Source of the DNA: Trichoplax sp. H2
Lineage: Eukaryota
NCBI GenBank assembly: GCA_003344405.1
Contig: NOWV01000011.1
Coordinates: 496,001 to 560,000, forward strand
Length of the DNA: 64,000 nucleotides
Direction: 5' to 3'
The notes beneath the pieces are model-generated. The model had not been told where the DNA came from. It was given only the letters and a program-made list of their open reading frames with translations, and ran no database searches. This document shows, in pieces, positions 10,689 to 64,000 of the stretch. A program made the position numbers and the translations under genes. Numbering within the stretch: the first letter of the stretch is position 1; each line of letters opens with the position of its first letter.

Positions 10689-11849
10689 TGCTTGGCGATA
10701 GGTCAAGAATTTACTGCTTCAAAGGTTGTAAGTATAATTATAAGCTGTACCGATAAAATTAGTTCTTCTGTCATAGGACAATGTAGTTTACCGTGAAAAA
10801 TATAATATGAGTAAAGGTTGTAGTTAGAATAATAAGGTTGCGGACGGCCGTTGGCTAATTTCTTTTGAATTGAGCTTTTCTAGAGGCTTGCTTGCTTGGT
10901 CTATCTTTGTAAATAAATGATATAATATAGACGATCTACAATGACCGGTTTGAAGTAGAGAAGGGTAGAAGCAAGATTAAAATCATTGCATTGAAAACGA
11001 TATTGAGATTATGGCAGTATCACATTGATCAGCAGAAAAGCGATATTGAATACAATGTGTAAAAATAAGTTTAAAATAGCAAATTGGCATGTACGCATTG
11101 ACTAAAGTATCGATGTCGATATTATATATTGTACAGTGTTGTGCAAAACCCTATTATTATCGACGAGGTGAAGACGTGTGCGTTAACTTGAGATAAATAC
11201 GTGTAACTCTTACTTGCATCTTCAATTAAACTATGTCCTTCTTGACTAGGACTACTCCCTGTTATTGACTGTAAGATAAAATCAATCCCATTTGCTACAG
11301 GTTATTAATCTTGATACCCTCTAGTAGATGCTGTAAGTTGTATAACTACTGTAAACTAACTCCATTCTACGCGTATTATGTTTTTTTAGTCATTATTGAT
11401 TTTGTTATTCCTTTTTATTGTAGTAGAGTACAGTACTGTCTCCTACAGTATGCAGAGTAGATACTGTAAGTCCATTGTAGTGGTTAGTAGTGGCGTCGAG
11501 TTGACATTGCCAATAAGAACTGTACTGTACAGCACAATACTTTGTACCTAGATGCTTGTTAAGCAGACATTAAGGCGAGGGATAAAGCAATCGTTATTAT
11601 TATGCTAAGTACAGCAGTCTGGAGATAGACCGCCCATCATTACTGCCGATGTAAGGCAACTATGTCACACATTACTATGCAGCATTTGAATTCCGCAAGA
11701 CATTTTGTGGCAGTCTATGCCGTGTAGTATACAGCAATTGACAATTCTATCGAAAAAGTTCAGGCTGTTGTACGATAAGAACTGCCAGACTTGCTACCTC
11801 GATTTTGATGTTGTTTTTAAGTAGTTCATTCGTTATTCTAACAGTGCTC

Positions 11850-12525
11850 TACATGCTGTACAGTACTGTACAGTATGTTTATATACTGTCCAGTATACTC
11901 GTACAGAATACAGTACTGGACACTTGCAGAGCAACGGTACAATGTGCACATTGTACCGTACTGTATTGTACTGTACAGTCTGTACTGTACTTTCCGCAGA
12001 TCAGGTCTACAGTACAGTACTGTACAGTAGTCCTTTTCTGTACAGTACAGTACAGTACTGTACAGTACAGAAGACGTACAGTACAGTACTGTATTGTACT
12101 GACTACAGTGCATAGTACAGTACTGTACTGTATCGTACGTACTGTACACTGTGGACCGTAGTTTGTAATTATCATACTTTTTACTGCAGAGGTAATGTAA
12201 AGCAAAGTAAGAAAAAAAAAGCTAGTAATCACTGATTCACTGCTCATTTGATCATTGATAATAAGAATGAGAATTAAATGGCATAGATGTAATTATAAGT
12301 GACCGTACCAGTTCCAGTGGTGGGAATCGATACACGGTGTTCTAGTACCGACGTACACTACAGTATACAGTACAGGTATCCAACATTTCTAGAAGTGGCT
12401 AGAGTGCTGTACAGTACTGCACTCTAGCCGATTCGAATAGTTTCGTTGACATAGTACTGTACTTCGTACTGTACATTGTACACTGTAGTACAGTACTGTA
12501 CACTGTATAGTGTATAGTACTAAAC
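11850..12525. repeat. (CAGTA)n/(TACTG)n pentamer-rich array upstream of KDM6
   Basis: For example TACAGTACAGTACAGTACTGTACAGTACAG near 12041-12070. It produces the spurious YCTV/QYST-rich ORFs on both strands. Confidence 0.9.
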
Positions 12526-13524
12526 CGGTGAGTGGAACAATCCTCGATTTACGTACACTAAGAATGGTTGTTGTTTAGCGAGAGTAAAACATTCGCATGC
12601 TATTTACTAGTAAATATTAACTGACACCGTCGTCGTGGTAAGAATATTACCTCGATACGGCTTGAATACATCAAAAACTGTTATACATTGAAGAAAAAAG
12701 GTTATGGTACTGAGCAAATGAGCATTAGGAAAACCAATCAGCGCGTACACCTATACTACTGTAGTGGATTGAAGCACTCACTGTATGAGAATGATACAAA
12801 ACAAGAATATTACTCTACTCCAAAGAAATAGCAACAAATTGGACTGCATAGATATGACGTTGATAGCATTTATCCTAATGATGGTGTACATACACTTGTT
12901 AGGATCGGTACAAGCTTCACATCCAGTGTTGGTCATACACGGCCAGTAGTCAGGACGAGTGATTACGTGAGTTCACTGAGAAATCAATGCGTAATAATGG
13001 TATAAACTGTAGCGCTCTGCCGTAGAGACAGTAGGATAAATCCAATAGATAGCGTACTAAAAACATTTACAAATACACGTATATTCAGTTGTTAGTCGAC
13101 TGCCATGGTATGGATTAATTACTAGCTATGGCGTTAATACCTGATCGATCGAACGATCCTAATAATTGACGACATGTACCTAAGTTAACTTAAAGTAATG
13201 TACGTGTTTTTGGTACTTTCATGACAATGAATGATTGTTCAGAGAGCCTGAGATGGACTATTGTCAGTTTACAATAAACAAATTGGATCAAGACTGAAAA
13301 GTAATATTCACTTATCGTAAGGCTATAGCATCTTACCTCAGTTCTGGGCGCTATTTTCAATTTATCTTGTTAAAATTCTGAATTTCAATCTTAGTCAAGA
13401 ACAATTTTTAGTCTGGTCCCTCGTTACAGCTGATGTCCATCATAACATCTTTTAAAGTATGTAGGTGTCAAAAAGTGCAGCAGCGAATCATTAGCGACCC
13501 TAGTTTTAAAAGGCACACACACAG

Positions 13525-13730
13525 AAATGTACTGTACAGTGTACAGTACATTTACTGTACAGTACACAAAAGTAAACAGTACAGTACTGTACTGTACTGT
13601 ACAGTATGCATACAGTACTGTTCAAAGGGTATGTAACACCTTAACACGCTTACCTTGTACTGTACAGTACAGTATCATGCTGTGTTGCATTATGTCTACA
13701 GTATGCGTATTTGCGTCCAGTACGTACTGT
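13525..13730. repeat. (CAGTA)n/(TACTG)n array
   Basis: ACAGTACAGTACTGTACTGTACTGTACAGTA at about 13576-13606, with flanking copies. Confidence 0.9.
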
Positions 13731-14584
13731 CAAACAACCAATGGCAACAATGGAAACATGTTCTAACAATGGAAGCGTAGGAAAAAAACACGAATATGGC
13801 TCTTTAGTCTATTGTGTTTCCAAGAACAATCAAAGAACTTGATGTTTTCTTCAAGTTATTTTTACCCTTTATTGCAAGTATAGTAACCAAACTGGATGAC
13901 TAAACAATTATTCTTTTACACTGTACAGTAAGGTGAATAGTCAATGCTGGACTTCTTGGAAATGTCTGTCGATCTCCTAATGATGCAGTATAGACGCGTA
14001 GTACGTACGCTACTATACAATATGTCCATTGTAAACAAGGAAGCATAGTAGCAGTAGCATACCGTGGTATTCATAGTCCATCATGTCCATAGTTCAAAAA
14101 GGCTGTAGAGCACTGGGCTCTGGGGAATTCGTATAGTAGTCACTATTGTGCAGAAGAAGAACATTCGACTGTTTCCATAGTACAATCTACAGTATGAGGT
14201 GCTGTGATGTCTCTTAATAGAGATAAAAAAAAAATTCGACGAATGTGATCTGTACGGAACGTCCGTTCTGTATAGCATCGAATGGCAAGGTTATTCTTCC
14301 TGTTATTAAAGTACAGTATCCAGTACTGTATGTATCTCCATGCAGTTTTCATAGTCAATCAATTGGGTAGTCCATGACTGTGGATTAGACCCTACGAGTA
14401 TAGCAAAGGTTGTTTAAATCATTGCTTACCCCCTCTCAACTAAGATGTTCACCATTACACACCGATAATATTGAAAAATTTTGTCAATTGACATACTTTT
14501 AGTACTTGCGCAAGATGAATTGACGCAACGTCCAACAGATATTCTAAATTTGGCCATTTGTTTTTGACGGACTGAAATAGGTGC

Positions 14585-14835
14585 CACGTACAGTACTGTG
14601 ACATACTGTACTGTGTGACGTGCAGTACTGTACAGTACACTACAGTACGTCACTCGTATGGTCTACAGTGTGTACTGTACACAGTACACTGTACTCTAGG
14701 ACAGTTCACCAGACCAGTGTACTGTACTGTACACAGTATGTACTGTACATTGTACTGTACACTACAGTAAAAGCCTGGAGTACCTTACTCTACACTACAG
14801 TAGATGCTCATACGCGCCATACAGACAGTACAAAC
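14585..14835. repeat. (CAGTA)n/(TACTG)n array immediately upstream of TAF9
   Basis: Dense TACTG/CAGTA units about 60-310 bp before the TAF9 ATG. Confidence 0.88.
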
Positions 14836-22319: not shown

Positions 22320-23300
22320 CAGTCCAGTACGGGCTACTTGTACCGTACACTATGTACTGTACAGTACTGTATGTGTTAGTACAGTACAGTACAGTACATT
22401 GTACCATATTTGGTACAGTATCTTGTACTGTAATAAGTCCACTGTGTTGCTTAAGGTTTTCTAATGGAGTCTACAGTACGTCGAGTACTGTAGAGTACAT
22501 CATAACAGTCACGGTGGCATGACATCATTTTTGCTCTTAATGGGCTCAGGCAGTACTGTGTCACTCCATAACGCAAGTCAGAGTTCAAGGAGTGACTCGT
22601 TGGTACAAATCACTTTACCACCGACAGACGACAGCACACCGTGTACTGTACAGTCCGTACAGTACAGTGCACGTGTGACGTGTCATGCTGCACCCTGTGG
22701 CTTACTGTAGTGTGTCTATTTGAAGGTGCGCATTCCTTCACGCTGTCGTTTACAGTGTACAGGACTGTCAGTTCTCTTGAATAAATTCGAGGCAAAATAA
22801 ATTGCAGTAAAGCTGTAAAATTGGCCTAAAATTTGATATAGACAGATCGATGAAGGAACGATCTATCCACTTTTAAAACTGTAATGCAGTAAATATCGTC
22901 CTGATTTGAAATATACAGTACGTTAGCCTGGTTTTACAGTTGACGCTTTTAGAAGCAATCGGTTAGTACAGACGTACAGTACAGTAAAAATAACATCTGA
23001 CGTCATGGGCAGATCGGACGTTAGGGCTGGTGAGTTGTAGTCAAGTCACTCCGGTGTGCTGTTTTGGCAGAGTACTGTACAGTACATTCCACTAGAGTAC
23101 AGTACCATGACTACAGTCTACAGTATAGCACAGTACTGTACGATACATCTGTCCATCTGTAGTCCCAGTCATGTCCTGGATTTTTTCCCGTACTAAAACC
23201 ACTCTACAGTACCATGAACTGTGCTAGAAAAATACAGTACAGTACTACACTGGATTAGGCTTTCCTTCTACTGCACAGTATCGTAGCACAGTACTGTGGT
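22320..23300. promoter_or_regulatory. Probable divergent promoter region of the C5orf34-like gene and Rab6, CAGTA/TACTG-rich, with a CRE palindrome TGACGTCA at 22998-23005
   Basis: Lies between head-to-head genes; pentamer clusters at about 22340-22430, 22640-22670 and 22960-23300; locally higher GC. Confidence 0.6.
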
Positions 23301-31028: not shown

Positions 31029-31668
31029 ATTTATTTTCTTTCCCGCCAGCTCTGTTGTGGTTTGTTGCGTACGGGGACTTGTAAGTTCTAGTGGCCCGCA
31101 ACACGAAGTCCCTAGCGCTGTCCGTCCAGTACTACAGTACCGTATTGTAGCCTTTACAGTGCACAGTACGATGTACTGCACTGTGATGTACTGTGCACTG
31201 TAGACTAGGGTCTGGACCAGACCGAACCAGACCATACAGCGAAGACTGTAGATACTGTACGATTAGACCTGTCATACGATCAATACAACTCATACAGTAC
31301 ATGTTTGAGAGTCGTGCAGCACTGTTAGTATGAGTCATCGTGTACAGTACTGTACAGTACTGTAGCACTGACTGTCAAGACTACTGTACTGTACACTGTA
31401 CACGATGACTCATACAGTACTAACACTCATACAGTACAGTATATGTATGAGTCGTATGATCCTACTGTACTCTTCGCTTTCTGGTCTGGTTCGGTCTGGT
31501 CCGGACCCTAGTCTACAATGTACAGTGTACAGTACCATGACTGTCGGATTTTTGTACTGTACCGTACTGTACTGTACTGTACTGTACTGAAGGCTGAAGC
31601 CTATCTGGGTGACTCCAAGACACTCTTGATCTACGGGTAGTAAACACAGCCGAGAGTGCTTCAACAAA
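31029..31668. promoter_or_regulatory. RFC4/Ric8 bidirectional promoter (640 bp between ATGs) containing an inverted repeat and CAGTA arrays
   Basis: Head-to-head ATGs at 31028 (-) and 31669 (+). Inverted repeat arms at 31199-31245 and 31471-31517; (TACTG)n run at about 31553-31589. Confidence 0.75.
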
Positions 31669-49000: not shown

Positions 49001-52000
49001 ACGATAAGGCTATTGATTAATCACCAAATTCGACATGAAACAACGATTACATTTTGTAAAATCTTGATATCATTCCCTTTCTCTTTCAGGGTCGCAATGA
49101 GTTTGCTATTAAAACCATCACTCAGGTATAGTTTCCATTCCTTGCTACAGGGCTCCTAATTTTAACGACCTTATGATATAATGATCATGAGCAAGATAAA
49201 TATTCGTATACTGCGACCATGGCTTAGAAGTCATACAAATTTACTCTTAAATATTCTAGGATCTCGAATATTTAACATGGCAGGAAGCATTTATATGTCT
49301 TAGAAATGAAGATCTGCCAGATCGATTACGTGCTCGATATTGCGATCTGATAACAGGTAAAGGATTATTTCCAATTTTTTAGAACTAGCTTGGAAGAGTT
49401 TCGTCATATATTACAATTATTTCAATGGAATAAGAGATGAAAACTTTTATTCGTTATACTTAAGAGTTGATTAAAATAATTTTCTAGGAATGTTTATCAA
49501 TATACCTGGCAATCATTCAGTTCTTGATGAGCTACAGTTATCATTTGTAGGTCTATCTATTAATATTCTGTAATAGAAGAGTACTTATCTTACTAATGAT
49601 CGATAAATTTTATTGAAATGGTTATAGATTTATAGTGACTTGGTCAAGGATCGGAATGGAAAGAAAAAGGTACCATTAAATTAATAAGAATTTATCTTGT
49701 GTATCTATCATGTTGAAGATATTATACGATCATGGTTACATTTAATGTGGTTCATTAATTCAAGAAGTCCTTTCTGTACATTCATAGCTCTGTATACAGT
49801 ATTTTATAAGTTAGCAAATATTTTGATCGCCAGGCTAACATTTTTTACTCATAACAGATTCAAAATGTTCCATTATCCTTCATGTCTGAGCTAAAGCAAT
49901 GGATTGCTTCGTTCTTAGATGCTAATAAGGTTAGAGAATAGGCTACCCTGGAATTGAACTTGAAATTAAGATAAAATTGTCTACAAAATAGGAATATTTA
50001 TGCTTAGTATACTTGTAAATATTAATGTAATAGCTACCGTACTACGCTAGAGAATAGGGCATTGAACATGAAAATTTGATAAAATTGAGATCAAAATAGG
50101 AATAGTAATGCTTAATATACTTGTAAAATATTAACGTAGTATAATAGTAGCTAGATTAGATAATACGATATTTAAACGAAATTATGATAAAATTGATGTC
50201 AAAATAGGAATATACATATTTAATACACTTATAAAATGTTAATATAATGGCTGCAAGAAACTTATGGTATTCCAAGATTGATTCGATTTCAAGATTAGTT
50301 AAATAGAATATTAGATATACAGTAAAGGCTATAAATAGATCAATCGTATCCCAAATATGTTAAGTTTCAGCATATAAATGGAACAATTGTATATCTGTCT
50401 TGATTATTAGAAGTAGTTTTTATCATGTTTAAATGATTGTAATATAGGATTCAAGAGTAGAAATTGAGTACATTATCGTTTCTAAATTTCTCAGGCAGCG
50501 ATATTACCAAAATTATAATAATTATCTGACAGTGGTTAAATTAATAGCTGAGTTTACATCAGCTATAATTTAAGAGCCGTATAGTTTAAAATTATATCCT
50601 AGAAATGAAATTCAAAAGATAATTGTTTCCGAGAGTCATTCTATATCGCGTTTGAATTTTATAATTTAGGATATGACTGCTTCGTTAATTGGACATAATA
50701 TGCTGATCGAGCAAGTACGTACTCAAAATTAATGGAATCATTCAATTTAATAAAGGATAGTAAAGCCACTACTACCATTTAAGATTGCTGATGACTTGAT
50801 ATTTAATCTATGTATATTCTATGGTCACTACATGATTAGGTTTTAAGATTAGTCCAAAATCTAGTGAGATTTGGATATTATGAAGATCTAACAGATATGG
50901 AAAAGCTAATACCGCCATTGTTATCCTTGCTGGATGGTCGCAATGATAAGCCTGTTCCGTTTTATACCTGTAAGAGACCGAAATAATTTTCTTCTCGTGA
51001 CTTATTCTAAGCTTCCCGTTACATTATAAATTATATCAGTGTATAGAGAATTATCCGATGTCTGATATTAAATTATAAGTTATTTCTTACCTATAATCAC
51101 TTTAGCATTAAATTCTGACGAGACTGAGCAATTATTACGCCAATATCGTGAAGTCGATCGATTTAAAGAAAGTGCTGAGACGAAAGCTGTGGTAGACGCT
51201 AAATACCAGTAAGAAAATTAATTTTATTTGTTAAATTGAATTCATAAAATAAATGCCTTAGAAACGCAGCGATGAGACTGATTTGACAATGATCCTATTC
51301 TAAACTATTATTTTATTCTGCAAACTAAAGGGCTATGGAAGCTGTAGATTTGCTGTTTAATTTTCGATTTAATAAACGTTTAGAGGTATAAATATTTTGG
51401 AACGGATCTATTATCCTATTATGGCAGCATACCTTAAAATTTTATTCTACATTTCACATATACTGTAGCAGCTGATCGGTTATTGAATTTCTGTTTTCAT
51501 TCATGTGTAGCTCTTTATAAATGAATTCAAGCACATTTATGAAACTAGCGATGATCTCTATTTTATTACAAATGAGAACTTTAGTTTAGAGGGCAACAGA
51601 AGGTAAGTTTAACCTTTTAATTTACATTTTCATATGAAAATAGCCATTAAAAGTAATTTTAAAAGCATGCAAGGATTCGTCGATAGGATAATGAATCTAA
51701 ATCATTTTGTCATAGCCTTTGTAAGAAAGCTCGAGAAAGGCTTAATGAAATATTTGAAGCAGCCCAATATTTCGATACAGAAAGTCTACGCGATATATTT
51801 TTGGTAAGATATCTTAGATTTGGTTTCGACCAAGATAGTATAAGGCTATTTTATCCGGACCTTAGCATCAAATTTGCATTATCGATCCTGATGAAATTTC
51901 AATTACATCAATAATGGCAGGATCTATCCAAATATGAATATAATCAAATGGTGGTAAAATCCATGCACTTATTACATCGTCTATATTCTACAAACTATAC

Positions 52001-55000
52001 ACTATTCGATCGTGCTGTTCAAGCCCAGGTAAGATAACTTTGGGAATGGTGTTCCATTTTATGGCGCTTCTAGAGAGTAGTGTTTAGGTTATATCGCTGT
52101 TCTTCCGATATCGTAGGTTTTAATCAAAGATTCATCATGTGAAGTTTTTCGCCATGCTCAGAAAGCGGTGCCAGTTATCCGTCGAATTCTTGCAACCAAT
52201 ATGAATAACGATCAAGCAACAACATTGGGTGAAATACTCGACACTTTTACAGGGTTAGAATGAAAAATCCTTTATAAATTTACCCAGTTCAATTTGTTGC
52301 GCTTCATTTTTCTTATGGTATCTTTAAGGATTAATTTTCTGTTTGATTATTTAAATTTGCTTGATTTTGATCTTGTAGCTTTTGCTCACTGGAAAACGAT
52401 CCTACCGAAAGGCATTCGATGAATCAAACTATTCTGTACAATTTTGGTACGTTCAATAATTTTTCTTATCCTCTAGCTTGCTTACAACCTCTGCACAGTA
52501 AAATTCAGTTGGATTAACGAATTTGATTACACTTCGAGCTTGTTGTAAGGCAGCCTTATAAATAAAGATTCCATCGGATTTTTACTTTCTCTTACAATAA
52601 TTAGAATTAGTTTAAGCTAAATTTATTTGGTTTTCACATTGAGCTAGACTAAGAGAAGAGTTTTTACTTGCTTTTGCATTGATTTAAGCTAGTCCTAGCT
52701 AGATATACCGTAAAATTCGATTGAAGTTGCACTTTCTTTGACTTTAGTTTGACTTTGAGCTGATTCTGGAATCAGTTTACAGTTAATTGAAATGGATTGA
52801 TAGCTTCTTTAACTTTATTTTAATCACAGCAGTTGCTAAAGTTATCGTAGTTTCTTAGCTATATAGCTATGTTGTAGTCTTATATGGTCATTTTTTCTCT
52901 AGCTACCCTATCAGATATTTTCATTACTCAAACTTCTTTTTACCTGCAGCAGCCTCTAACGTTGCCGTAGATTCTTAGTTGCTTTGTAAGCTCACATGGT
53001 TATTTTTTTTTCTAGGTATTCTATCAGACATTTTCGATATTTTGGGGCAAGAATTTGATGCAAAGTTGGCGGTAAGACAATTGAATAATTTCCCAATATA
53101 AACAATATGGCTGATAGTAATAAATACAGACCATCATTTCTTATTCGCTTTGATCAATACTACTACAGGATCAATATAAGGGAGTTCAGATGATATTTCA
53201 AAAAAGTTTCAGTCTATTACAAGCTTTGTCTAGGTAAGTTCGTGATTTATTCTTTCATTTACCGCATTCACGGTTAGTAGTAAAACTTTTTGAGGCCTAA
53301 CTAAAGTGAATACTGTTTCTTTTTGCTGGCTCTCAATATTAAATGACTAGTCTGAGATAAAAATGAGAAATAATTGCTTAATTTTCTACCTTAATCAGGC
53401 CAATCTCTACCGTTAATTTAGTGTATTCCAAAATATTTTCTAGGATTAAATGTATTTCATGCCATTCATTTAACGTTAATATGTATTCCATATGAAATTA
53501 AAGGGGCAATAAAACGATCCAAGATCGCGTCTATAAGCGATTAAATTCGCTGCTGAGAGTAAAAGGAGCTGTATCTAGCATGGCATTAGCTCTAACTGAG
53601 ATTTTTACTGGTAATAAAGATACTTGCTTGAAAATTCGAGCTTCAGAAGTGTATGCAATCATGAAATTAGTTGCCGAATATAAGGAAGAAGCGCCGGAAT
53701 TGATCGACTTATTAAATGCTATCGTTAAGGTAATGCTACAATAGCTGCATCCAGTTAGAGAAGTTCTATTTTCGTCTTCGGTACGTTAAAATGTACTACT
53801 AAGTATGATCACTAATATAAATTTCCTTACCTTTTGCACGCCTATCGGTAAACTAGGTCGAAGAATTAGATTTGCCTATTAAGCGCAACCAAGGTTTAGT
53901 TATGAAATATTTTATGGAATATCGAGATCGAATTGCGGAAATTATCGATAATGTCGATAAAAGGTGCTTGCAAAGGATTGATTTCATGACCTAATCATTA
54001 CTAAAGTACTTATTCAAGATAAATAGAGTGAGAATGTTCTATCTTATACCTTTTAATGAGTAATTTAATTTTTTTGAACGATATCATACAGGAAAGCGTT
54101 ATGCAATGATCAGGACAAGTCCAGTAAACTGCATCAATATTGCTACAGTCTGATTAATTTATTAGCCACATGTGCAGAGGTATGCTACCAATAACCTATC
54201 CAATCTAATCCACTTTAGAAGTTAAATGAAGAGTTGATATAGAACTTCTATGTCAATATTGTTCTCTACTATATGAATAATTCTGGTAATCTGTCCTTAG
54301 AGTTAATTAAAATAGATTAAATTTTCTAGGATTTGAAATTGATGTACAGATTAATTTTAACCTTATCAATAGCTATCAGTTATGCCATAGTTTATGAAAT
54401 TTTATTTATTTAATTTCTAATTTTCAGTTGTAATATAGTTTATAAAATAATTTCATTACTTTATTCTATGTCAAATTATCCAATTAATCAGAATTAATAT
54501 TGATACGTAGATAAACAGATTAGTTTTTAATATCATATGTCGTTAATAAGTATCTTACGCTACTTTGGTACTTTATAATATGAAGCTTGTAATTAGAACT
54601 CTCCCAATTCTTGACAGAGCGGATAATAATAGCTAATTCTGATGTAGAGATTAATTTTAGTTTGTATAAGATACAGTAAAAGCCCGATAAGTGCGACACT
54701 TTTGGTTTGTAATTAACTTTATGAAATTATTTCATAGGGAGAAAACAGATTTATTGAATCGATTTGCCAAACTATTTTGCCCATTGAAGACATCGTAGAG
54801 GTTTGTATAGACGTTATTTTCCATTGGATAGTGATAAATAAATATCACTAGCGATATAATACTTTGGCTGATAAGTATGAAACTTGATTCGTGGATTCTT
54901 TCTTAGGTTTTAAATCATCCAGGAGTTGATGATGATATGAAAAATGCCTACTGTCGCTTTTTCCTTTGGGTCTACTTAAATACAGCTGGAGGAATGTATG

Positions 55001-58000
55001 AATCTGGTGCAGCTGATCTAAACCATGATGAGTATGTTCATCTTAGCTTATTATTTTCATGATAGTATACAGAACTGGTCAAAATATTGGGTTCATTGCT
55101 ATTTTAGTTCCTAATATCGATATATTCCTGTTGAAGTTACTTAATTTTCAATTTTTTCTTCTTTACCGTAGTAAAATGTGGATATTTATCTCGAACATTT
55201 GCTCATCTATTGGAGCTTTTAACGACTTTGCAAAACTTAACCCTAATAAACTCAAGGATATCTTTAAGAAAAATATCGGCAGTATGGGGTAAATATTCTG
55301 GAATGATCGTGACTTTATTATCACTTTGCAACATACTAATTGATTGCTAATTTTTCATCTAAAATAATTAGGTACGAAATGGGGAAATATCGTAGTATGA
55401 AGAATTATCTATTAGAGGGTGTTATACCGCTATTACAGGTGAGATTCAGATAAACCATTCCTTTACTGTAAATTTCTAATTGCAATACGGATCCTATCTG
55501 TGGCTGCTTGTTAGATTGAGGTGGCTGAAGATTATCTAAACAGTTAGTAATTTTCGCATTTAGTGGTCTAACTATCCTACCGCAATGATCGAGCTTGATC
55601 TTCCTGTAGAGATGCAGAAATGATATAAATACGGTTCAGTATTAGCCGCTGCATCGGGCTAATCTGGTTGTCGATATAGAGTACCTATAAGATTAAACTG
55701 AGAGATTTGATTTATAGTTTAAAAAACAGTTCTCACTACTGATATGATGAAGATACAGTTTCAATTTATGCCATGTTTTAGAATATGAGTAGATCTATCT
55801 ATAGCCGTACTGGAGCGATTAAATCATCCACGAGCTAGATTTATGCCTTGACAAAATATACAGGCTGCTTTGATCGTTTATGAGTCTATATCCAAGCAGT
55901 GATTGAGCTTGGATACAGACTCATAAACGATCAAATCTCTAAGTTACTTCATTTGCTCTAGTAATTTATCTAGTATCAATTTTAGCTTGCGTTATTTCAA
56001 CTTTAGGCATTCTTCAAGCGTGTCTATATCGTAGAATCGGAAAGAGTTGATATGGAACAGAAACATATTGATGCTCTTGGCCAAAATTTAGTGGTTAGTA
56101 CTTACTCTTGAACTATCGCTAGTTTACATGAACGCGACGTTAAAAATTGTGTTCTCCTCGTAATTATAATTAGCTATTAGTTACCCTATAAGCAGGCGAT
56201 AATCTTTTCCCCTTGTAACGATGGTATTTTCAAAATTATGTTGAGTAGACCTTTTGTGGGCTAGTAGCTGAACATTTAACCAGCTCTTCCAATTTAAATG
56301 CCATGATCAACTGTACGACGACAGTTTTACCATTAACAACTTTACCTGTAACCATTTTGAGTGATTTTCAAGATCGTTTTTCCAACCAAAAGTCAGTGAT
56401 GATTGAAAATCCAGCTGTTAAAGTGAGTTAAATCAAGTTGCAAAATATCCTACCGTTACAAAAGTAAATAACGTCGGCATTATCTACCGCTAGGCGTATA
56501 ACGAGTATTATAAAGAAGAATCCCATTTAAATGTCATCTTGAATATCTTTGCCGTGAATTTTAAGCGAATTTACCAAGGCGAAAATACCGTCGAAGCGCA
56601 AACTGGATTTAATAGTTCCGAACGTAAGTTGCCAATAGAACTGTTTGTAGCGGTGATTTTACTCAGTGCTAAAATCTTACTCCACGTATTCGCTTAGAAA
56701 GATCCCATGTATATTCTATGCCTTTATTTTATCCCTAAGCATATTATATATTATTATTGCTTTTAAATTACTGCAGAAAACACACGTATTTACTTATGAA
56801 ATTCCAATCTACATTCTATATCTTTACTACATCCCTAAACATTGCTATTAAACTACAGTAGAATATTCCCGTATTTACTTATATTTAATCCAAATTCTAT
56901 GCCTTTACTTAATTCCTAAACATTGCTTATGACTTATTACAGAACACGTCCGTATTTATTTATAAAGATCCAATTCTAAATTCTTTGTCTTTATTTTATT
57001 CCTAAACTTTTCTATTGCTTTCAAATTATTGCAGAGTATACGCGTATTTACTTATTCCGATTAAGACACAATCTAAATTCTATGCCTTTATTTCATTCCT
57101 AAACTTTGCTATTTCCTTTCAATGATCGCAGAATACGTTGAAGAAGGTAGCGATGACGAGTTGCCTTTAGGGGAAGAATTTCAGCTATTTACCCGATGTT
57201 TTGCTAGGTTAGACTATTTTCTACGACATTTACTCAGTTGAATATTTGGCATTTTAGCCAGATCATTACCTTAATCGAACTCTATTTGATCGATATAATA
57301 CCTGAATTGTTATCATGACCTCAATTCTTTTACAGAGAGTCTCCGACGGGAGTAATTTTCACTAATGCTGAAAAATTAGTCAAGCTTTTAGAGTAAGGGA
57401 TTTCAATTCGTTTCCATCATTGAAATTGCTACCCTATAGAGTATTATTCTACTGCAAGGTTGCCAAATCACTTTCAACCAGTACCTAATGACTAGGGCAA
57501 TTTTTATAATTATTGTATAGAATTTCATCATCAATGACTCGTTTAAGTGAAAAAGAACGAATACGACAGGAATCATTAGATGTTAAATGTTTAATGGTAA
57601 AATACTTCATCTATCGACTTTGCAATCATACTTGAGCTTTCGACTGCTTTCTACGATATCTAGAAAATGATTAATCCTTGATTTTGATGTTAATAATCCT
57701 ATTCAAGACTTTACGTGCTATTATATATAATCAAGTTATTAAATTACCGCCTGATTGGGAAGAAAAACCAAATGAATGGGAAAGGTAAGTTGGAATATTG
57801 CCGAGGTAGTATATTGATCTATCCGACCTCAATATCCAAATTCTATTTGATTATTTAGCCTACTGCAAATCATTGAAAATACACAAAATACTCTAATTAG
57901 TTACGGAACGATGATTAAGGTAAGCCCATCGATGGCATTGAAATATCCTTGAATACTATCATAAAACGAAATATCAGTCGAGAAAGGTTTTCTTATACGC

Positions 58001-61000
58001 ATATCTACTCTCAAATTGGCATCCTATTTAGGTCTTACCTTTACTCTCCCGACGAAGTGATGACATCATTCGAGAATTACTATCATTTTTAGCTGCTATG
58101 CTCCTTGAGGGTAATAGTATGGCTCAAGCAAGTCTAGCGCAGTATTTTCTTGGCACTAGAGAAGAAAGTTTCTTTTTCGCTATTAAAGGACGTATGAATA
58201 TGTCGATGGTTGCTACTAAAGAAAAGTAAGAGCAAATTCTAGCGATTAATTCGTTCAATATGGTAATCTTGTTGGGAAGAATTCAAATAGCATAAATTGG
58301 TCTATACATTAAGTTAACTTAGACGTTTTGAAAATGATTATATATTATAACTAACGTTAGCCTATAGGAATATTTCCAGAGATGTATTATAACCAATTTT
58401 AGGGCATAACTTAAAATAGTCCTACTGTAGTAATGATATCAAAATATGAGCAGCTAATTTAAAGATGCCGTAGTCGGTATAAAGTTTCCATTGCTTTGGA
58501 TATTGCTAATATGCCTTAAGGAGAAAAGACTAAAGCTCAACTCTATCTATCTTAGGCGAGTTTTATTAGCTCAGCATAAAGCAAAAATGGACGAAAAAAT
58601 TCAGCAAGCTAAAAGCTTATCGAAAGCTGTCACAGCTGGTAAATCTGGAGGCAAGGTAAAGAGGACATTGGTGATAGTAGTTACTCTTTTATTTTCCTAT
58701 TTTCTATTAGTCAATGTATTCACTAACTCTGAACACTTCTCTACCGATGAATCCCTTGGCAATGATCTTGTATTTACTCGTCTTTACTTTATTCATCAGA
58801 AATTGGTGGAAGGAATGACGCATGGTAAGCGTAAATCCAACGCCGTTGCTCCTTTGGCAAGAGTTATGAAATCAAGAAGCGAGAGTGAAGTATGTCGATT
58901 AATATAAGTAATATTGGTTACAATTTAGAGTAGAATTACATCTAATTATCATTTGAGATTATTATAGCAAATCTGTCCAACTTAATGATGAACATTTCTT
59001 CACAGTCGCCATTGGATCAAGACGATAATGATGAAATCCCACACGTTAAGATCATGAAAAATGGAGAAAAACAAGTGAGTTAAAGTCTAATCAACGATTG
59101 CACGGACGATAGGCTGAATAGCTTGTTGTAATTTCGATAGCTTTCTACTAGGAATAAATTTGATATCTAATTCTGGAACTAAATCTAAATTATTACAGAA
59201 ATTAATATCTCAAAATTCGATATCACGATTCAGCCTGCCAATGGAGTCTGAAATCGAGGTATAGTAGAACAATTCCTGAATATGAATCCGTTTTACCAGC
59301 ATCCACGATAAACTTTAATAGAACGCTAATAGTTGTAAAATTTTATCCATAGATGAAGAGCGTTGCTCAAGAATCTATCGAAGAGCAATCAGAAAATGCC
59401 ATACTCAATCTTTATAAGGATGATGGCTATATAGAATTAGTTTTACGAGTATTAGCATCGATGTGTGACGGGCAAAATACTACATTACAGGTGAAAAAAT
59501 GTAATATCCATTTTTCCGTCAATATCCATTGACTTCTAACTTTGGTGTTATTTTACAACTCTGTTTCTATAGAATTATCTTCGAGAGCAGCTGGACAACA
59601 TTAAATCCGTCAATTTAGTTGCTGAAACAGCGAAATACTTACATATGCTCTACGATAACATCAACTCTAACAATATATCACTGACAACGCAAATCTTTGT
59701 TACATTAATAGAATATTCAGCGGTAAATAAACTGTTCCTTATTGAGCTAGATAGAAGTGAAAATGGCTGTAATAACTGCTGTTCTTGTTCGAGAAAATTG
59801 CAATTAGTGAATCCTTTACCTTATCATACTTTCATTTATCCATCGTTAACCTCATGCAATAACGAATTTTCTTGCATTATAGGGCTGCTTTGAAAATCAT
59901 CCGGTTATTTATGATAGCAAAATAATTGATTGTATCAATTTCATTTTACGCGAATCATCATTTCATGGCTGCTCTGAAGAAGAAGTAAGCTAACTGAAGG
60001 GATTCTAGGGCTAAGAGATTAATTATTGATTTAAAGAGTATTTCATTAACAGATCTCAAAGCATGAGAGCATCAGTATAATTTGGAAATTATTACGAATT
60101 AATCTAGAATTATTTATATATCGCGGATAATCCCGCTAGCACGGATAGCGTTTACTTATGGACTTGTACTTGCGTTTGCATTTAGATTTATACTCTGAAG
60201 CAAGCTATTGTAAAGCTAGTAGCTTGCCTGATTGAAGATAACTGTAAGCAGTCCTTAATGATTGCAAGAGTAAGTAGAATGAGGGGTGGAATTGATTATG
60301 TTCTACCTTTCTTTGTGCTAGCGATGCCATAGAGATCGTTAATGCTTTGATGCATATGCTTGTTTAGGAAATTAAAGAGACGATTGATGTAAATGCTGTT
60401 CTCGATGTAGCTACAGATTGCTATAGAAGACAGGTAATGATTAAGAAATTCGATCCTTCTTAAATGCCTTATCGCCAGCCAATTCACAGACTTTTTTATT
60501 TTCATTTTAGCAAATGGCACAAGGGAAATTTAAAGATCTAGTCGTTGATGTTGGCTTTGGTTATTTTCACATCCTTATGCGTTTACGTGATTTGGATGAA
60601 AATAAAGTAAACTTAGAAAGTAAGGCTGGAATAACTTGTTTGCTGCTCGTCGATGAAAGTCTAGGCCTAGTTACTCATTTATTTTTTTCCTTACTTGATA
60701 TTGATAGCTATTATTGGTTGTGATTCATCTGTGCTACTCGACAAGACCAAAGAAAGAGAAAAAGGTCAGCATAGGAGAGAGAGAATGATGCTCTGATATC
60801 AATGATCAAGAGTTATATTTCATTACCGTATAATCTAAAGCCCTTAAAAACCATTTGCAATTTCTAATGCTACAAGTTTCTCAACGTTCCTTTTAAAATT
60901 ATGATAGATGAGAAATTTATTCGATGGAAAGCCATGGAATATTATCAATACAATTCATTATCTATTGAAATTTTACGTGAAGGAATCTTACAGAAAGTTC

Positions 61001-64000
61001 ATTTTCGAGTACTGGATAAGGTAGCGTAATTAGTTTAAAATTGATCTTTGTTCTATATCGCGGAAGGAGTAAAGTTCATCCACAATTATGATTGACAGAA
61101 GACGATTCGAATAGTTTAATGCTTCTATTTAGAGATGAACCTAATACTCTGGCAAAGTTTTCTCATTTGTATTTCTAATTATGATAGGGAAAGTTAAGAG
61201 AAGGAGTCAAAGAAAAAGTGAAATGGAACGTTAATAGAACATCACCGAGCAATAAACTTCGAGATTTTGTCGATTGGTCGAAAGATATTCGAGAAAACAT
61301 TCGATATCAAGTGAGTAAGATCATTCATAAAAGAGTTACGCACTAAAGAACAAAAACAGTATTCTAGAAGCATGAGAAATACTATATATGCAGTATAATC
61401 TTTTCTTTTCTACTTAGAGAAAGTAAATCATTTATAACGCGGTTACAATGATTTAAGTTTAGCTGGCCTTCTGTAGGGCATGACCAGCTATAAGACATTA
61501 GTTACATACAAGCTCGAAGAATACTGTGATTAGTGTTCGCCCCTAGTTCTTTTTCCAGCTACGGATAACTTATAACATGTTATGAATGAATTACTGATTT
61601 CTGGAATGTATCTTTATCTTTCAGTCAAAAATTTTAAGTAACAGGATTGCAGCCTTTTTTGTTAAGAGAGCGTAAGTATCTGAAATTCACGGATCAATTT
61701 ATAAAGTAAACGAGGTGTCTGGTATTACTACGAAATAATTAGAGAATAGTTTGAGGTTCTGTCCTGGTGGACGTTAAAGTAGTAGCTTGTTATTGTCTCG
61801 ATAGCTGTAGGGCACCGGATAGGTCTTCATTAAGGAAAGAAATTTCCATAATCATTTGTCATGACAACCTTTCATAAAATTTTGATCGCTGTCTCAATAA
61901 CGGCTTTCATTTGCTATTTGCTAATGTAATAGAGATGTAGCGAGTTAATCGATATGTTACGGCTAAAACCCGATCCGGCTATAATGCATAATAGCCAACT
62001 ACAGCCCGAATTAAGAGTACAATCTTCTGAATTTCGAGCTTAAGACGTCTATATAAGAGCCTATAAGTACAATGTTCACCATATCTAAGATTACAGTAAT
62101 ATTCGTCTAGTGTTTATGCAGTTTATCAGATCTGTTCTAGTGAGAATTCAGGAAGAATACTTATCATCATACTTGAAATAACCAATACGGTACCTAAAGT
62201 AAATCTTGGTTAGCTATCCTAACAATTTTCTACCCATTTCATTTGTTACAGAGATATTTTTACACTGGTTTTAAATATATTAACGCTAGCTATTAATATT
62301 CTAATGATTGTGGATTGGAGAGCAGCTGAATTTGGCGTTGCTAATCCGTATGTAGAAATATTATTAATCTCTATTTTATCCAACTAATTATTTCAGAAAT
62401 ACTTCAAACTAGTGTATCGAATCAATTAGCGAAATACTTTTATCATTCATTAAGCGCAATTTAAATCAACATCTCGTAATTAAATTTTATTCTATTCTGT
62501 CTAAACTCTAGTAATGCAACTTTATTTGCAAATCCTATACCCGTGGTTACCTTACCTATCTATAATATATTACTGTTTACGATGGGACCGCTGCATAGTG
62601 TGGCTTGTTTATTCATCATTATAAGCTATTTTCTATCAAATCAACCCAAATTACCTACAATTGATATTTGGGGATCAAGGTGACAAGATATTGCAGTCAA
62701 ATTCTTCACATAACTCAAATATAAATGTTAAACCGTGCAGCTTATTTATTTTTGCTATCTTGGATCATAGGAAAAGAGAACAAGTTAATATTTTTGCCCC
62801 AGCCAAGCGGCAACGAACATCCTATTTAGAGCATAAATTTCTGAGCTTTAAAACCTTTTATTTATTGGTAAATTCATTTATCTACAAATCTATATTTAAA
62901 TAACTTGATATAAGTTAAAGCATTGTATCTAGCATCCTTCACCAGTTAATCAATTGATCTACACCACGTTATATCGATAGTAGAGTGATCCACTTTAAGA
63001 AATTATAGCGTTTACCAGTCCTTTATGAATTGCTAATAATTCACGAGCCAATTCTGATAGTACAGTTGCTAAGAAATACCTAAATTTTTTGCTATTTGAT
63101 CATTGTTTGTTTTAATTAGCTAACCTAAGGTTTCGTTTATGTCATGATGATTAGATATTGCTAGTCTTTTCTATCTTGGGCACTTGTTATCGTGGCTACT
63201 TTTTTGCCTTGCATCTCTTACACACGGTGGCCAACAATAATCTCTTTAGTCGAATTATTAAATCTGTGACATTAAATGGTAAGATTTGTTTATATTTATT
63301 GCATTGATCTTCATTAATTGCCTCCTTAATTCGAATTAAATCATAACTAATAGAGTTATTATTCTAATTATGGAATTGGGTTGTGTAATTGAGAGTTACA
63401 ATTATGATGTTGAAATTATGAAATTTGCCTTAGTAACTAGAATTGGATCATAACAGGGGTAGTGTTTAATAATCTGATTGCTAAATTGGGTCATATAGTT
63501 GAATTAAGAATTTAGTTATCTATAATTTTCCTAATTTAGATTAAATCGTTACGATAGAGCTATTGAAATCAATCTAGCTATTAAGTCGAAACAGGAGAAC
63601 TGGAATTAGCCAATTTTACCAGAAACAGCCTTCTTGATTGAAATTATTTTAACGGATGTACAAAATGATTCATCAGCTGTACTGAGTTCTTTAGTTTAAA
63701 AATGATCAGATTTACTTTTAGTTGTATCCTTAATTAGGATAAACATAGTATAGTATGTAGAATGGATGGTCTACAAGTCCCATTTAATCTTTTACATTAC
63801 GCTCTATTTTATCTTTTAAATCTTAAAATATATTTATCCATATTTTAACTTGACATTTGGCGGTCTACTCATTATTAATACATTTAGCAGTCTACTCTTT
63901 GGTAATCCAGTTAATAGCCCTCAATTAAAATTATTTCATCCTTTCGTTTTAGGGAGATCACTGATCGTTGTCGGCATTTTGGGAGTGATTATGATTTATA
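40055..64000 (+). CDS. Inositol 1,4,5-trisphosphate receptor-family Ca2+ release channel (divergent IP3R-like); about 80 small exons, 3'-truncated by the window inside the transmembrane region
   Basis: N-terminus MAKSVCLGDVVSIYSEE; YGQVVQLKHVFTNKYI; FRVMPRYKVKSEGD; CRLRHMVTRKYL; HRQKLMRNLK; SRKNELYIA; ELIRDNRKI; YLDLLNVLCVCNGRAIPNNQ; NLVRFGYY; LLATCAEGENRFIESICQ; LRVLASMCDGQNTTLQNYLREQ; SIEILREGILQKVHF; IKSVTLNGRSL. These MIR, RIH and TM elements occur in the expected order. Confidence 0.9.
49950..50250. repeat. 108-bp tandem repeat, 3 copies, in an IP3R intron
   Basis: GATAAAATTG...CAAAATAGGAATA...ATACTTGTAAA-like units with anchors at 49984, 50092 and 50200. Confidence 0.8.
55869..55935. 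repeat. 67-nt hairpin (29-bp arms, 28/29 complementary, 9-nt loop) in an IP3R intron
   Basis: TTTGATCGTTTATGAGTCTATATCCAAGC-agtgattga-GCTTGGATACAGACTCATAAACGATCAAA. Confidence 0.9.
56685..57140 (+). repeat. Tandem repeat of about 80-100 bp, 5 copies, each ending in a 3'-splice-site-like sequence; the last copy is the real acceptor of the IP3R exon at 57132
   Basis: Unit: CGTATTTACTTAT...ATTCTATGCCTTTA...CCTAAAC...YAG-A. AGs end at 56776, 56861, 56942, 57034 and 57131. Confidence 0.85.

Follow-up and report, generated by a model that had tools for sequence, protein, structure and literature searches.

One intron of an IP3-receptor-like gene in the placozoan Trichoplax sp. H2 raises the question of whether short segments bounded by AG and GT, made by duplication, have become exons. 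Within the window (the whole stretch of 64,000 nucleotides analysed here), this intron holds four segments of 9 nt that lie in tandem copies of its own 3′ end. The original prediction read them either as a combinatorial cassette of three-residue microexons in a calcium channel or as the birth of introns and exons caught in progress. Our analysis favors a quieter reading, with a probability of roughly 0.55: the array would be an old duplication relic of the 'mirage' kind, skipped in splicing and tolerated.

Anatomy of the array and its host gene

The host gene runs on the forward strand from 40055 to 63999 and extends past the window. About 2300 of the 2551 amino acids of P0160, the protein named Trichoplax sp. 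H2 IP3R type 1, map to it residue for residue, and this places 79 exons and 78 introns within the window. The exon at 59573–59725 matches RIH_assoc (PF08454, E 4.7e-11), and P0131, the T. adhaerens protein TRIADDRAFT_55241, shares 99% identity with P0160 across the region. RIH_assoc and other IP3R domains, together with homology to named IP3Rs, place the gene in the IP3 receptor family; its homologs are invertebrate IP3R-like proteins. Its smallest mapped exon is 36 nt.

The array lies in the intron at 56624–57131 (508 nt), which is excised whole in the dominant transcript and would be about 150 nt long if the array were collapsed to a single copy. Two constitutive exons on the same strand flank it, 56494–56623 (130 nt, ending in phase 1) and 57132–57207 (76 nt, beginning QYV); both had been predicted, and both are confirmed by joints in RNA contigs and by exact P0160 mapping. 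Repeat comparison shows five diverged tandem copies of the 3′ end of the intron, 74–81% alike, each spanning the intron end and the exon head, and four of the five terminate in AG-9 nt-GTATTT. Together with the P0160 mapping, this supports the proposed origin by tandem duplication of an IP3R acceptor. The repeat has one match in the genome (G000); a second match there (L003, E 0.08), tried as a paralogous intron, is weak and uninformative.

The copy that the original prediction overlooked, spacer S0 (56686–56776, 91 nt), has a GT without a 9-nt unit before it, the nearest upstream AG lying at 19 nt, and it ends in the acceptor of unit 1. Unit 1 (56777–56785; acceptor score 7.7, donor score 3.6) would add QNT and is followed by spacer S1 (56786–56861, 76 nt), the most diverged and most polymorphic copy. 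Unit 2 (56862–56870; acceptor 6.8, donor 1.6) would add QYS; S1 supplies it with a tandem CAG-TAG acceptor, either choice of which is in frame. After S2 (56871–56942, 72 nt) comes unit 3 (56943–56951; acceptor 6.2, donor −0.2), which would add QHV and in which a variant of run X6 changes QHV to QHI and also abolishes an internal out-of-frame GT. S3 (56952–57034, 83 nt) leads to unit 4 (57035–57043; acceptor 8.3, donor 2.0), which would add QYT, and S4 (57044–57131, 88 nt) ends in the real acceptor. Coordinates, spacer lengths, phase 1 and the four tripeptides, set beside QYV in the real exon, are all as first described. With a size in the 3–27 nt class, a preserved frame, no stops and flanking AG and GT, the units have the anatomy of microexons.

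Two further features of the spacers were read correctly in part. Their size is within the range of introns in this gene (minimum 71 nt) but at its short end, since the median is 130 nt and only 9/78 introns are 88 nt or shorter. The CCTAAAC motif, taken for branch-like, is present in the repeat but absent from the gene's 77 further introns; therefore it is a motif inherited with the repeat and only putative as a branch consensus.

Splice sites were scored with matrices built from the 78 introns of this one gene, in an annotation-derived model. The four extra acceptors score 6.2–8.3, against a median of 6.15 for real acceptors and 7.6 for the acceptor in use. The unit donors are in the weakest class: just 6, 1, 1 and 1 of the 78 real donors score as low as units 1 to 4, respectively, while scores this high are reached by 14–61% of decoy GTs within introns. 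GTATTT occurs at 0/78 real donors, and only 2/78 lack, as the unit donors do, both −1G and +5G, which bears out its description as a weak donor. The donor of the upstream exon is strong (9.0, with 64/78 real donors at or below it). Read-through from any extra acceptor runs into a premature stop.

Splicing of the array intron in assembled RNA

Four of the 22 listed runs were examined (X4, X5, X6 and X11), all as assembled contigs. X6 is recorded as RNA; the RNA status of X11 and X4 is a guess, but both are spliced, and the three represent three studies. Run X5 has no splice joints and was excluded from the RNA evidence.

In X6 (depth 95.9), X11 (88.7) and X4 (168), 56623 is joined directly to 57132 with no letters between. 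No joint to any unit appears in the contigs of the four runs, so that 3/3 spliced runs are without an inclusion joint, in contigs from which minority paths are dropped. Assemblers remove a lower-depth 9-nt detour as a bubble. Since contigs hide minority isoforms, only major inclusion is refuted: the units are not included in the majority of bulk RNA. Both annotated proteins, P0131 and P0160, skip all four units as well, and the proposed cassette thus fails as a major or constitutive one. A working cassette would yield isoforms longer by multiples of 9 nt across this junction; the direct joint is the sole one seen, in contigs without power for minority isoforms of the +9 type. Regular splicing is undisturbed to the extent that contigs, blind to minority products, can display it.

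Intron birth in progress is likewise not shown. The spacer copies are old, lying 12.5% from their consensus against an allelic SNP rate of about 1% in the available text of PMC6057997, and in the contigs only the 508-nt intron is removed, with no new intron spliced. Variants in X4, X5 and X6 spare every unit AG and GT and leave copy number unchanged, which has little power because allelic divergence is so low. Only one contig, from X4, spans the intron; its copy number is unchanged, it carries a deletion of 9 nt and differs at seven further letters, and it may be a mosaic of alleles. Four of the five clear single-letter X4 variants of the intron fall in S1, which makes up 76 of its 508 nt (P 0.002). 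Three of X4's variants in S1 bring the spacer closer to the array consensus, a pattern that points to conversion or rapid decay of S1.

A skipped relic could have come about as follows. A segment made up of the final ~85 nt of the intron and the first few bases of the exon would have been duplicated head to tail, and the repeat would have grown to five copies. The first duplication presumably brought the copied AG to a point 9 nt before a GT that the intron already had, and the copies made afterwards would have inherited this spacing. The strong upstream donor joins the last acceptor, as the contigs show, and this acceptor may win by being the only one that fronts a full exon with a normal donor. 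The four units would be skipped, or used at noise level only; as read-through from an extra acceptor meets a stop, mis-spliced products would probably be degraded. The array would be tolerated, without selection for protein diversity. Low exon skipping is reported for T. adhaerens in the accessible part of PMC6142364, and amphioxus mirages are described, in excerpts of PMC3087553 and PMC3902484, as carrying AG/GT signals while splicing is undisturbed.

Possible minor microexons and weaker alternatives

The leading rival, a serious contender that we nevertheless hold to be somewhat less probable than the relic, is that selection maintains the units as genuine minor microexons. The GT 9 nt past an extra acceptor would close an exon of three codons, and the next spacer of 72–88 nt would be spliced out as a short intron; every spacer is at least as long as the shortest intron of the gene. 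Inclusion would insert Q-x-(T/S/V) in a variable loop, immediately ahead of its conserved Tyr. This could take two forms. Inclusion may be regulated and cell-type-specific, allowing as many as 16 combinations, or the units may serve as an in-frame escape by which mis-splicing at duplicated acceptors is rescued.

The spacing is exact in all four units. The copies descend from one ancestor, so the four values do not count as independent, and common descent explains them. Given one ancestor, all AG and GT survive with P about 0.11–0.14, and the units stay free of indels with P 0.6–0.7. In a neutral simulation (20,000 draws of duplicated acceptors from the gene), the full pattern of AG, GT and spacing in four copies arose in 1.9% of duplications and, where the ancestor had an in-frame GT, was kept in 6.7%. 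Since the finding was picked for this pattern, the result is weak evidence: constant spacing is unusual, yet not beyond chance for a feature picked from a genome scan.

Acceptor duplication itself recurs in this gene, where 3/61 introns tested stand out (z 12.6, 8.4 and 5.5). A second case, at 52805–53035, takes in about 120 nt from the end of the intron and about 25 nt from the start of the exon; the copies are 71% alike, and the duplicated AG at 52902 is strong (8.0), with no GT for the next 58 nt. A third and more decayed copy, at 54330–54737 in intron 54180–54737, lies about 290 nt upstream of the real acceptor (z 5.5) and, read by eye, has apparently lost its AG. These other two duplications have no AG-GT units, and the persistence of a donor-less duplicated acceptor at 52902 speaks against in-frame escape. 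Elsewhere in the gene, 26 intronic AGs are strong, and an in-frame GT stands 3–27 nt behind 4/26. Single in-frame AG-GT segments with fairly good scores lie in two other places in introns of the gene, 52477–52497 (21 nt, scores 8.2/4.8) and 63738–63752 (15 nt, 6.1/5.2), as candidate microexons.

A scan for chains of duplicated acceptors covered 864 kb of 94.9 Mb, unannotated; many of its chains are not true acceptors, and it recovered 4/5 acceptors of the array itself. The 81 chains in these 864 kb show no frame bias (first GT at 3n in 14/51 with a GT; 30 without), so in-frame escape finds no wider support there. At the same time, among the 10 distinct arrays with at least three copies in the 864 kb, the IP3R array alone shares an in-frame GT, a point for the microexons. 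On the same contig, acceptor-like AGs also recur in the tandem arrays at L063 575–1264 (reverse strand), L054 8815–9670, L085 342–647 and L082 980–1154, and those in L063 and L085 resemble further mirage-type or exon duplications. Other repeats in the window are a 108-nt tandem repeat at 49948–50252 (2.7 copies, 77% matches), which lies in intron 49930–50669 and spans no splice site, and degenerate 5/10-nt palindromic microsatellite patches at 11840–14760, 22340–22400 and 31340–31590.

The 9-mers differ at 10/36 sites, more than the spacers do (P 0.024). In the true frame five of the ten changes are synonymous, against a null mean of 2.3 (P 0.009–0.04 over four assumed ancestors), and in the shifted frames 1/10 and 2–3/10. 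No stop arose (P 0.2–0.3), and the alternative residues are conservative (N/Y/H and T/S/V, with V to I as the variant). Behind the units, donor positions +3 to +12 changed at 1/40 sites (P 0.02); the same positions changed at 3/10 in the unit-less copy S0 (P 0.02), which is not more diverged elsewhere (6/58), so the donor block is conserved only behind units. The two tests that are independent of the way the finding was selected combine to P 0.007, post hoc and with a star phylogeny assumed. On the other side, pN in the 9-mers (0.17, with pS 0.75) is not below the spacer rate of 0.125, and the 10 nt ahead of each AG are equally variable (8–10/40); the selection signal therefore rests on about seven synonymous sites. 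Escape of end copies from homogenisation, described for mirages in the available portion of PMC3087553, could also explain the decay of S0. Clustering of conserved columns along the spacers is not significant (P 0.06–0.34).

Further signals would suit microexons. Besides the strong acceptors, there are AG-free zones of 65–80 nt ahead of units 2–4 (zones of at least 60 nt precede 10/78 real introns' acceptors) and a TGC near every 3′ site of the units, though all of these are inherited from the real acceptor. The other sequence seen in X4 likewise keeps the spacing and the signals, a comparison of low power. An exon-by-exon search of G000 for PF15230, which we take to be an eMIC-related family, gave no match, at a cut-off that no control genome passed.

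The loop appears, from its homologs, to tolerate insertions. Of 55 motif-matching protein rows (near-duplicates included), 14 are longer than the skip form by 1–7 residues (1–8 in the comparison of insert positions), and in 13/14 the extra residues stand just before the conserved Tyr, the would-be insertion point of the units. The remaining 41/55 rows have the length of the skip form, the commonest one, and skipping thus seems to yield the ancestral loop length. Searches for an insert-bearing protein returned little. A 43-aa query from the upstream exon found no candidate homolog among proteins of 77–2000 aa; residues 1440–1600 of P0160 matched P0131 and one protein at 48%, with no insert-bearing isoform; protein searches found no named placozoan ortholog beyond the two-member Trichoplax cluster; and a PDB search gave no alignment of the loop to solved IP3Rs. 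The one match of a metagenome scan (21 residues at 57%, 43% GC, bacterial-like) was judged to be chance. Two Patella IP3R-like isoforms (P0007 and P0066) differ by a 9-residue insert at residue 2013, away from the array loop.

Rare variants are lost from contigs, and the 9-mers change in a codon-like manner; minor in-frame inclusion of the units may therefore still occur. Its fullest form, a mirage turned into a working combinatorial cassette of four 9-nt exons with low or cell-type-specific inclusion, placing Q-x-(T/S/V) in an IP3 receptor loop, is in our judgment unlikely.

Far less credible is an action of the array at the RNA level, in which competing acceptors slow removal of the intron and a detained intron tunes expression of the channel. 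Unspliced contigs do run over intron 56624–57131 in X4 (depth 11.7 against 168–182) and, over part of it, in X6 (10.8 against 96–102), and there are none over neighbouring introns of 71–155 nt. However, X11 has none over the array intron, and library DNA could be the source. Long introns may survive the contig cleaning of assemblers, and an X4 contig also enters the 568-nt intron 55439–56006, with a loose end at 56002 (matched by eye); selective retention of the array intron was therefore not accepted. The intron shows no stable fold, its RNA folding no better than shuffles (z 1.6). Lastly, annotation might have overlooked constitutive or majority exons among the units, a completed gain of exon and intron. 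This view has only the frame-preserving anatomy in its favor and is refuted for bulk RNA by the direct joint retained in three studies, skipping moreover restoring the ancestral loop length.

Known systems and what the array may mean

The skipped relic has its closest counterpart in the mirage minisatellites of amphioxus, described for Adh3, troponin C, the globins BflGb6 and BflGb9, and PGBD5 in the available text of PMC3087553 and PMC3902484. There they are tandem repeats over exon-intron boundaries, of unstable length, and a proposed source of new exons and introns. The Trichoplax array shares the boundary-spanning repeat, a unit length inside the reported 10–160 bp, many units with cryptic AG/GT signals, and normal splicing as the main outcome. 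It differs in being placozoan and older (74–81% alike against 81–100% for BflGb6), in having exon-like parts of microexon size, all four of them in frame, and in showing no change of copy number in the one other sequence seen (X4). Intron gain by tandem genomic duplication (the Rogers model, as cited in PMC3087553), of which potato RdRp is a reported case (PMC4974935), is alike in newly juxtaposing AG and GT; in Trichoplax, by contrast, the intron pre-exists and is the only one removed in the contigs.

Microexons dependent on eMIC/SRRM3/4 (bioRxiv 2021.02.24.432780, in the sections available) are likewise of 3–27 nt, frame-preserving and hosted by ion channels, and fly eMIC exons, like the Trichoplax units, combine a weak own 5′ site with a strong upstream one, a long AG-free zone and a UGC near the 3′ site. 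In contrast, the Trichoplax units owe these features to a duplicated acceptor, the branch motif differs from CUAAY, and the contigs show no inclusion. The same source dates the regulated neural program to the base of the bilaterians, where the eMIC domain arose, which argues against such microexons in a placozoan. The Schistosoma micro-exon genes, too, contain series of short symmetric exons whose omission keeps the frame, and a duplicated 9-bp micro-exon is described for one of them, MEG-3.1 (PMC8293314, in excerpt); TNNT3 exons 4–8 are short, symmetric and combinatorial (PMC2447309, likewise in excerpt). The exons of both systems are seen in transcripts, whereas the Trichoplax units are not seen in the contigs. 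We found no paper on the array locus itself in the open-licence literature and bioRxiv, supplements excluded.

Thus, the array is a real feature that arose in a known way. The main mRNA skips its units, and the chance that an array of microexons is taking shape here is modest. If the units are silent, interest is modest: mirage duplications would extend to placozoans, with three in one gene, and four strong decoy acceptors could be ignored in a genome of short introns. If they are spliced, the locus would offer a concrete mechanism by which microexons are born, and the mirage-to-exon model, which the amphioxus work could do no more than propose, would gain a test case. Should the cassette prove true, it would be a direct example of the origin of a microexon array, in an animal without neurons and outside the bilaterian eMIC program.
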